The notes beneath the pieces are model-generated. The model saw only the letters and a list, made by a program, of their open reading frames with translations. It was not told the DNA's origin and did no database searches. A stretch of DNA of 64,000 nucleotides from Escherichia coli (GTDB lineage: Bacteria; Pseudomonadota; Gammaproteobacteria; Enterobacterales; Enterobacteriaceae): NCBI RefSeq assembly GCF_030384885.1, contig NZ_CP128613.1. One strand, written 5' to 3'. The position numbers and the translations under genes were made by a program. Every line of letters begins with the position of its first letter. Position 1 is the first letter of the stretch. Below are positions 32,125 through 33,084 of this stretch, piece after piece.

Positions 32125-33084
32125 ATGAAGTGGCTTTTATTGCTCTCCTTAAGTCTATATTCTTTTATTGTGCAAAGTGCTCCCTGTACACTGACCAATG
32201 TCGGTGAACAACGTGGAACTTACACTCTAAAACCACTTAATATGAAAGGTAATCTCGCTGTTGAAAAAATTGAAAACACTGGAAATATCATTGAGTGTGC
32301 GGATTTGCAAGATACGACCAACGCCATTAAAGTTCATTTTTTAACACTGAACGCCTTAAGGTTTAAAGTGGGGGGGCGTCATTATATTATTAATTTTCCT
32401 TTTGAATCTAACGGTAAAAAAATAGAACTACCCGGTAAATCATCTTATAATTTAGAAGAAATCTTATCTGCAATAAATTTCACGATTCCATATTCTATTA
32501 CTTCGTTACCAGATAATTCTCACATCTCAGATATTTTTCCAGGGGCACCTTTTCCTTTGTTGTTCGAAATTGAAGTGAACTCATGCATAGGGAGTAATAC
32601 TAATTGTAACAGCGTCCGCTTTAACTTTAATTTAAATACCATTTTACAGGTTAACTTAATGACTTGTGGTTTTGAAGACAAATCCATCGACACTGGACGA
32701 TTTGTACTGTCTCGTATCAATAGTGAAAATTATCAGTTTCATCATATAAGATTTGACTGCATCCAGGGCGAGCAAGGTGAATTAGTTTTTGAACCCAGCG
32801 AAGTTGAATATTACTTTGAACCAGTGACGATACAGGAGTCAGGGAGCAGCATATTAAAAAATGAGTTAGAAAATAGTGAGGAAGGTGCTGGTCAAGTAGG
32901 CTTTCAACTATCGAATGATGGTACGAATGAAATCCAGTATGGTAAAAGCAATTACTACTCTTTTCAGCATCCCCATGAAGGAAGTAATCAAATTCCTCTA
33001 TTTATTCACCCGCGTACATATGGAAACAATGTCTCAAGCGGGCAAATAATGAGCCGAGTCAAAATCGTGGTAATGTACAACTAA
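32125..33084 (+). CDS. Putative fimbrial adhesin / tip protein
   Basis: 319-aa secreted ORF (signal peptide MKWLLLLSLSLYSFIVQSA) ending in a beta-strand-like …SRVKIVVMYN, last gene of the fimbrial cluster; preceded by AAGGAG ribosome-binding site. Confidence 0.5.
   Translation: MKWLLLLSLSLYSFIVQSAPCTLTNVGEQRGTYTLKPLNMKGNLAVEKIENTGNIIECADLQDTTNAIKVHFLTLNALRFKVGGRHYIINFPFESNGKKIELPGKSSYNLEEILSAINFTIPYSITSLPDNSHISDIFPGAPFPLLFEIEVNSCIGSNTNCNSVRFNFNLNTILQVNLMTCGFEDKSIDTGRFVLSRINSENYQFHHIRFDCIQGEQGELVFEPSEVEYYFEPVTIQESGSSILKNELENSEEGAGQVGFQLSNDGTNEIQYGKSNYYSFQHPHEGSNQIPLFIHPRTYGNNVSSGQIMSRVKIVVMYN

Follow-up and report, generated by a model that had tools for sequence, protein, structure and literature searches.

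An intact tip-adhesin gene at the end of a decayed Yeh-like fimbrial operon in Escherichia coli

The window analysed here, a stretch of 64,000 nucleotides from Escherichia coli (NCBI RefSeq assembly GCF_030384885.1, contig NZ_CP128613.1), carries at positions 32125-33084 an intact gene that lies directly downstream of a decayed fimbrial chaperone-usher machinery. The gene is probably the tip adhesin of the four-gene Yeh-like/OI-1 fimbrial operon, with an open reading frame (ORF) that has simply not yet been disabled by a mutation rather than one that has been kept. We prefer 'not yet hit' over 'kept' because half of the sister genomes have lost the ORF, because frameshifts occur in it at the density found in the neighbouring pseudogenes, because the major subunit gene that was orphaned with it evolves neutrally and because the adhesin is lost also in strains with intact machinery. 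The locus has been described before, and the finding is real but ordinary.

Identity and decay of the locus

The gene order is rpsT, an espX1-like effector gene, subunit, chaperone, usher and adhesin, with nhaR and nhaA following on the opposite strand, and the locus is O-island 1 (z0020-z0025) of O157:H7 EDL933, named a 'Yeh-like' fimbria of the gamma4 clade in Table S2 of Wurpel 2013. The window shares with this fimbria its position between rpsT/espX1 and nhaR and the order of the four genes, the gene under study being the orthologue of the last one. The window major subunit finds its best match in YehD; for the usher of an intact orthologous operon the NCBIfam model NF011763 gives 1489 bits (cut-off 933), and the chaperone of that operon is best matched by StcB, the Salmonella counterpart of Yeh. 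There are also differences, in that the allele found in the window is a rare one, with ∼91% identity to the common allele in nucleotides and 89% in protein, and has lesions of its own, a chaperone frameshift and an 891-bp usher deletion, whereas most other strains have lost subunit, chaperone and two thirds of the usher through a 5' deletion. The relevant features are as follows.

32125-33084, + strand: intact tip-adhesin gene, ATG to TAA, 319 aa (ORF list)
32113-32118, + strand: ribosome-binding site AAGGAG, 6 nt before the adhesin ATG (sequence reading)
32125-32178, + strand: predicted Sec signal peptide, residues 1-18, cleavage after VQS (sequence, model and homologue alignment)
29277-29810, + strand: major fimbrial subunit gene, 177 aa, YehD-like, ORF intact (Pfam Fimbrial, E 5e-8; YehD model, E 1.7e-31)
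29861-30542, + strand: periplasmic chaperone pseudogene, two -1 frameshifts, ORFs with PapD_N and PapD_C pieces
30555-32112, + strand: usher pseudogene, stop after codon 112, frameshift, in-frame 891-bp deletion at ∼32014

A preliminary description of the window had noted a complete ORF with a good ribosome-binding site and a signal peptide below a chaperone and usher that seemed inactive, and this picture is borne out on both counts. The 319-aa frame is preceded by AAGGAG, which directly follows the usher stop codon (32110-32112), with a spacing of 13 nt between the usher pseudogene and the adhesin ORF. The N-terminus, MKWLLLLSLSLYSFIVQS followed by A, reads as a Sec signal peptide; both this assignment and the cleavage site are heuristic and were made with no dedicated predictor. 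Residues 2-17 form a helix in the structure model, and the cleavage region, xQA/xxC (the slash marking the cleavage site), is aligned among the adhesin homologues.

Upstream, frameshifts, nonsense and the 891-bp deletion are all seen. The deletion removes usher codons ∼487-784 (relative to intact orthologues); the usher remnants are a 112-aa PapC_N piece and a 386-aa piece that takes up only positions 2-320 of the 549 in the profile. The window thus lacks a working cognate chaperone and usher, both genes being pseudogenes, and while the adhesin belongs to the tip-adhesin family by descent, its own machinery in this strain cannot assemble it. Over 15 kb the window and E. coli 2013C-4282 (NZ_CP027579.1) are 99.99% identical, and in the latter the Prokaryotic Genome Annotation Pipeline (PGAP) reports a frameshifted chaperone and an usher that is frameshifted, has an internal stop and is missing its C-terminus; the adhesin ORF is there named 'hypothetical protein' (WP_000871693.1).

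A promoter and terminator scan of 28900-33250 gave 15 promoter-like sites where 14.6 are expected by chance, and it is therefore uninformative as to independent transcription. Between the convergent adhesin gene and nhaR there is, at 33090-33114, a perfect 8-bp inverted repeat (CTCCCCCA, 9 nt, TGGGGGAG) that the scan did not flag, since no run of T follows it.

Architecture of the predicted protein

32179-32649, + strand: N-terminal beta-sandwich domain, ∼residues 19-175, presumed receptor-binding; Cys 21, 58, 154 and 161
32650-33081, + strand: C-terminal pilin domain, ∼residues 176-319; Cys 181 and 212; Gly -14; penultimate Tyr

In order to be recognized by a chaperone a pilin carries a C-terminal motif consisting of a Gly 14 residues from the end, a penultimate Tyr and alternating hydrophobic residues. 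The motif is present in the C-terminus of the window protein, GQIMSRVKIVVMYN, with Gly at -14 and the penultimate Tyr, and in family alignments G306, S310, V315 and Y318 are invariant or nearly so (G306 invariant, Y318 nearly). An AlphaFold2 model, calculated with the sequences of relatives as the alignment, has a predicted local distance difference test score (pLDDT) of 83, and a Foldseek comparison of the full-length model with the Protein Data Bank (PDB) places FimH first (E 8e-10), followed by FocH, CfaE, PapG and CupB6. The preliminary description had suggested a two-domain tip adhesin and had proposed structure prediction as a check for a pilin domain; a pilin fold is indeed predicted, the C-terminal domain having an incomplete immunoglobulin (Ig) fold. 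The two-domain tip-adhesin architecture is thus well supported by the model, by these matches and by the place of the gene as the fourth in E. coli and Citrobacter operons, while lectin activity or a receptor is not supported and no close structural relative of the N-terminal domain was found. In common with FimH, PapG, CupB6 and LpfD the window protein is predicted to have a signal peptide, an N-terminal beta-sandwich and a C-terminal incomplete-Ig pilin domain with Gly(-14) and penultimate Tyr, and its gene likewise comes last, after the usher. It differs from them in that sequence identity is only 9-19% and in that the window operon is without adaptor or minor subunits.

Sequence searches by themselves are less telling. 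Pfam Fimbrial matches residues 180-319 with E 0.012, under the cut-off, NCBIfam has no family for the adhesin, a phmmer search of PDB sequences returned chance hexokinase matches only (E at least 0.05), and a word-indexed protein search returned E. coli variants and fragments only. An exhaustive HMMER search, by contrast, recovered full-length relatives of 319-337 aa at 20-42% identity that, by their source names, come from Citrobacter freundii, C. youngae, C. portucalensis, Salmonella enterica subsp. houtenae and arizonae, Pseudescherichia and Buttiauxella, and that are annotated throughout as hypothetical or fimbrial proteins. All three relatives that were looked up are the fourth gene, X, of a subunit-chaperone-usher-X operon, and this terminal position is common to the window, the intact E. 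coli operons and the homologues from Citrobacter and elsewhere. In the yeh-locus operon of C. freundii and relatives the fourth gene encodes a homologue with 28-42% identity; two of the three, P0011 and P0013 (the latter from C. freundii), lie inside a yeh locus with the order metG, mrp, DUF2574, subunit, chaperone, usher, X, rcnB. At the yeh loci of C. freundii and of the source of P0011 (L019, 6001-6969; L018, 6001-6960) the adhesin is of the window family and not of the flap type described for E. coli Yeh, which suggests that adhesins may be swapped between related gamma4 operons.

A point of nomenclature needs to be addressed here, since the name 'Yeh-like (Yhl)' given by the Hultgren lab (2026) to a set of pili is also the name in Wurpel's table for the window locus. 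In that work the receptor-binding domain of YhlD, solved by crystallography (PDB 8V9V), has an alpha-helical flap and a key W142, and yhlD, reported to occur almost only in phylogroup E, was cloned as an intact gene from Sakai. YehD and YhlD (PDB 9N4G and 8V9V) are, like the window adhesin, the fourth genes of minimal four-gene gamma4 operons, but both have a two-helix flap between beta-strands 9 and 10 and a conserved Trp (W142/W143). The window adhesin lacks the two of these, the model having a single 7-residue helix and no flap, and the sequence no Trp after residue 3, that is none outside of the signal peptide. The window gene is moreover widespread and frameshifted in O157:H7 (the Sakai/EDL933 orthologue), whereas yhlD is intact in Sakai. 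Identity of the window gene with YhlD was consequently rejected, on the grounds of no phmmer match in the PDB, no flap, no Trp and a frameshifted Sakai orthologue.

Loss of the ORF in the window lineage

The window-type allele is present in full length (at least 96.9% identity) in 8 of 5426 complete E. coli genomes, all others having ∼91% nucleotide and 89% protein identity. The first chaperone -1 frameshift and the 891-bp usher deletion occur in every one of the eight (the second -1 frameshift is found also in L009), so that the machinery was already dead in the locus that they have in common. The adhesin ORF, on the other hand, is intact in four of the eight genomes and frameshifted in the other four, with lesions confined to two homopolymer runs.

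32416-32422, + strand: A7 homopolymer within GGT AAA AAA ATA; frameshift site
32370-32376, + strand: G7 homopolymer, rare window-type allele only; second frameshift site
L005: G6
L008 and L009: G8 plus A8
L010: A8

Among 17 orthologues every insertion or deletion (indel) lies in the A7 or the G7 run (codons 82-99) and none farther downstream. Counting independent indels beyond the common lesions, the adhesin has 3-4 in 0.96 kb and the remnants of chaperone and usher have ∼7-9 in 2.15 kb, which amounts to the same rate per kb in the adhesin and in the neighbouring pseudogenes. The window copy, although in frame, has a private R295H substitution at a site where the other 12 genuine aligned family members have R or K.

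Population survey

A search of the 5426 genomes found some remnant of the gene in 4222, at least 80% of it in 3633 and a full-length four-gene cluster in 1192; of the 4238 places that matched, three are plasmid-borne, not chromosomal. Most of the remaining genomes have one common 5' deletion that leaves the C-terminal half of the usher and the adhesin gene. The gene is absent altogether from ∼22% of genomes, and K-12 strains retain only its last 138 bp, labelled by PGAP as a 'fimbrial family protein' fragment; K-12 presumably has IS1 between nhaR and rpsT. Of the 4222 genomes, 60 taken as a systematic sample, uncorrected for clonal relatedness, were scored for the state of the ORF.

Intact, 960 bp: 29 genomes
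A6 frameshift: 12 genomes
A8 frameshift: 4 genomes
+7 bp: 1 genome
In frame but labelled 'fimbrial family protein': 5 genomes
Truncated: 9 genomes

The label 'fimbrial family protein' serves as a proxy for a pseudogene and was right at 16 of the 17 loci inspected; both of the two checked among the five in-frame genomes so labelled have an internal stop. Counts of A6, A7 and A8 from short BLAST queries were dropped in favour of systematic samples because single-nucleotide polymorphisms flank the tract. The ORF is thus intact in ∼48% of the genomes that have a remnant, or ∼38% of all 5426. It is intact in ∼21 of 34 orphan configurations versus 7 of 17 full-length clusters. Strains 98198, Nord58 and TR01 (labelled O157:H7) have a fully intact operon; in O145 the usher is dead and the adhesin intact, while O157:H7, L016 and L024 have an intact chaperone and usher and a dead adhesin. 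The suggestion in the preliminary description that this may simply be the next gene to decay is therefore the one that fits, with about half of the orthologues disrupted, among them four of eight in the lineage, at a frameshift density equal to that of the adjacent pseudogenes.

Substitution patterns and recombination

Ratios of non-synonymous to synonymous polymorphism per site (pN/pS) were calculated by the NG86 method.

Adhesin, between the two allele classes (pS 0.28): 0.17
Adhesin, within the window lineage: 0.19
Adhesin, among full-length clusters: 0.16
Chaperone pseudogene, window lineage: 0.22
Usher pseudogene, window lineage: 0.24
nhaR and nhaA: 0 to 0.02

Clearly, the adhesin gene has been under purifying selection over its history. 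The comparison of dN/dS across orthologs that had been proposed as a check on selection does give a low value (0.17), but it fails to discriminate, since the neighbouring pseudogenes are equally low and a low value for the adhesin is then no evidence of current constraint. The low values of the pseudogenes are due to recombination. Roughly half of the lineage's minority variants occur also in the common allele, codons 225-317 (32797-33075) are a mosaic of imported tracts in which blocks match the common allele in varying subsets of the 8 genomes, and the two allele classes are less diverged in the C-terminal domain (pS 0.15) than in the N-terminal domain (pS 0.40). The major subunit, for its part, evolves neutrally in the window lineage, with pN/pS of 1.26 versus 0.07 where the cluster is full length.

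A restricted count was made of variants absent from 9 common-type alleles, with stops included among the non-synonymous changes.

Adhesin: 18 synonymous, 14 non-synonymous
Usher remnant: 24 synonymous, 40 non-synonymous
Chaperone: 4 synonymous, 7 non-synonymous
Major subunit: 1 synonymous, 10 non-synonymous

Several observations count against a gene that is merely waiting to be hit. The adhesin pN/pS of 0.19 within the lineage does not look fully neutral, and the restricted count of 18:14 differs significantly from the neutral expectation. It is also somewhat more synonymous than that of chaperone and usher together (28:47; Fisher p = 0.089), and after codon 98 the intact copies have 8 synonymous and 2 non-synonymous variants, the frameshifted copies 6 and 7. 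Taken together these numbers are a non-significant hint of residual constraint on the adhesin, inseparable from imported variation with 8 genomes and unsampled donor alleles. Such signals are confounded because the 3' half is a recombination mosaic between allele classes and because the pseudogenes depart from neutrality as well. A further point of the same kind is the published FmrA phenotype of the O157:H7 N-terminal fragment, considered below, which makes a function independent of assembly possible.

Alternative explanations

In O157:H7 the orthologue has A8 in place of A7 and is split into two ORFs, an N-terminal one of 108 aa and a C-terminal one of 227 aa. According to reviews of Allison 2012, deletion of z0021, the gene for FmrA, raises motility and its overexpression abolishes motility, an effect suppressed by overexpression of flhDC, and FmrA is described as a repressor of class II and III flagellar genes. 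An interaction with FlhD4C2 has been proposed, which the reviews call unclear, and the accounts given in them present FmrA as a regulator and not as a truncated adhesin. A regulatory role of this kind for the window gene, which would be independent of any fibre, is unlikely in our estimation, but more can be said for it than for the other alternatives. The window protein is identical to the FmrA fragment at 88 of 99 positions, the motility effects are on record in those reviews, every indel among the 17 orthologues lies in the two runs at codons 82-99 and none farther on, and there is the weak trend to constraint in a lineage that has no machinery. Against this, a fragment that begins with a Sec signal peptide and covers the first half of a beta-sandwich of the periplasm is not a likely partner of the cytoplasmic FlhD4C2, and the FlhD4C2 mechanism was, as the reviews have it, inferred genetically. 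The gene is missing from K-12 and ∼22% of genomes, codons 1-98 are under no special constraint (4 synonymous and 4 non-synonymous variants in the lineage), and homopolymer slippage alone also explains the clustering of the indels. The A run of the window is A7, so that the full 319 aa are encoded rather than the 108-aa fragment with which the FmrA motility data are concerned.

It is conceivable, if quite improbable, that FmrA is the signal-peptide-bearing first ∼99 residues of the adhesin, produced by a +1 slip in the A7 run, and that A7 (together with G7 in the window allele) acts across E. coli as a switch between an adhesin and a fragment that represses flagella. Were this true it would explain why the start of the ORF, the ribosome-binding site and the first ∼100 codons persist in lineages that have no machinery.

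The preliminary description had also raised the possibility of an orphan adhesin that is assembled by a heterologous chaperone-usher system encoded at another locus. The most plausible candidate would be Yeh, a related system, which would chaperone and secrete the protein for display on a heterologous fibre. We found nothing in favour of such assembly as such, and consider it very unlikely. The circumstances that make it worth weighing are the intact ORF, ribosome-binding site and signal peptide, the Yeh/Stc-like character of the operon, an intact Yeh in 92% of strains (Wurpel 2013) and the homologues in the C. freundii yeh locus, so that in one genus at least Yeh-type machinery is compatible with adhesins of this family. 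Yet the ORF is lost in half of the genomes with the same dead machinery, at a frameshift density no different from that of the pseudogenes next to it, and the co-orphaned major subunit, which the adhesin would require for a fibre of its own, is neutral. Nor are orphans more often intact than expected when set beside full-length clusters. In addition, recognition of subunits by chaperones is usually system-specific.

Finally, reversible slippage in A7 and G7 could switch the adhesin on and off within a clone, as in a phase-variable contingency gene. The A6, A7 and A8 as well as the G6, G7 and G8 forms are all natural (between strains), and at least five independent events have struck two runs only; phase variation is nonetheless extremely unlikely. 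For efficient switching a run of 7 is short, the common allele has no G run, homologues in other genera lack the KK-coding A run, L008 and L009 with both G8 and A8 are still out of frame, which resembles accumulation rather than switching, nonsense alleles occur too, and switching would be pointless with chaperone and usher deleted. The O157:H7 strain TR01 was considered separately as an A8-to-A7 revertant and rejected, its allele being O145-like and not a repaired O157 allele.

We return therefore to the explanation of an adhesin gene that has not yet been hit. By analogy with the family, in an intact operon the adhesin would be exported by Sec, its incomplete C-terminal pilin domain would be held by the cognate chaperone, and it would be the first subunit delivered to the usher, so as to end up at the tip of the fibre with the N-terminal beta-sandwich facing the receptor. 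With chaperone and usher dead in the window strain and its lineage this route is closed, and any protein that is made, lacking donor-strand complementation, would probably be degraded in the periplasm. The ORF would be intact in the window only in the sense that no disabling mutation has occurred so far, decay proceeding chiefly by slippage in A7 and G7.

Surroundings of the operon

27561-29033, + strand: EspX1-like pentapeptide-repeat type III effector gene, 490 aa, intact; left end of an AT-rich island

The island extends over 27.5-33.1 kb and has a G+C content of 27-40% versus 50-57% in the flanks. Its espX1-like gene has 85.6% nucleotide identity to the common espX1. Both this gene and the subunit gene are near invariant in the 8 lineage genomes (pS < 0.01), while from the chaperone onwards pS is 0.04-0.08, a jump that places a sharp recombination boundary inside the island. 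Beyond the operon there is an insert between nhaA and mokC (window 35505-38372, - strand, and beyond) that all 8 window-type genomes have and that is absent from the common-type loci inspected; it encodes a 426-aa protein with an IS1/IS1595-type zinc-binding N-terminus, a sulfatase and OmpK.

Concluding remarks

That cryptic chaperone-usher operons of E. coli decay piece by piece is well documented; the present case adds one more example and is, for the window itself, of little significance. The intact operons of strains 98198, Nord58 and TR01, on the other hand, could be used for characterizing the fibre and its receptor.
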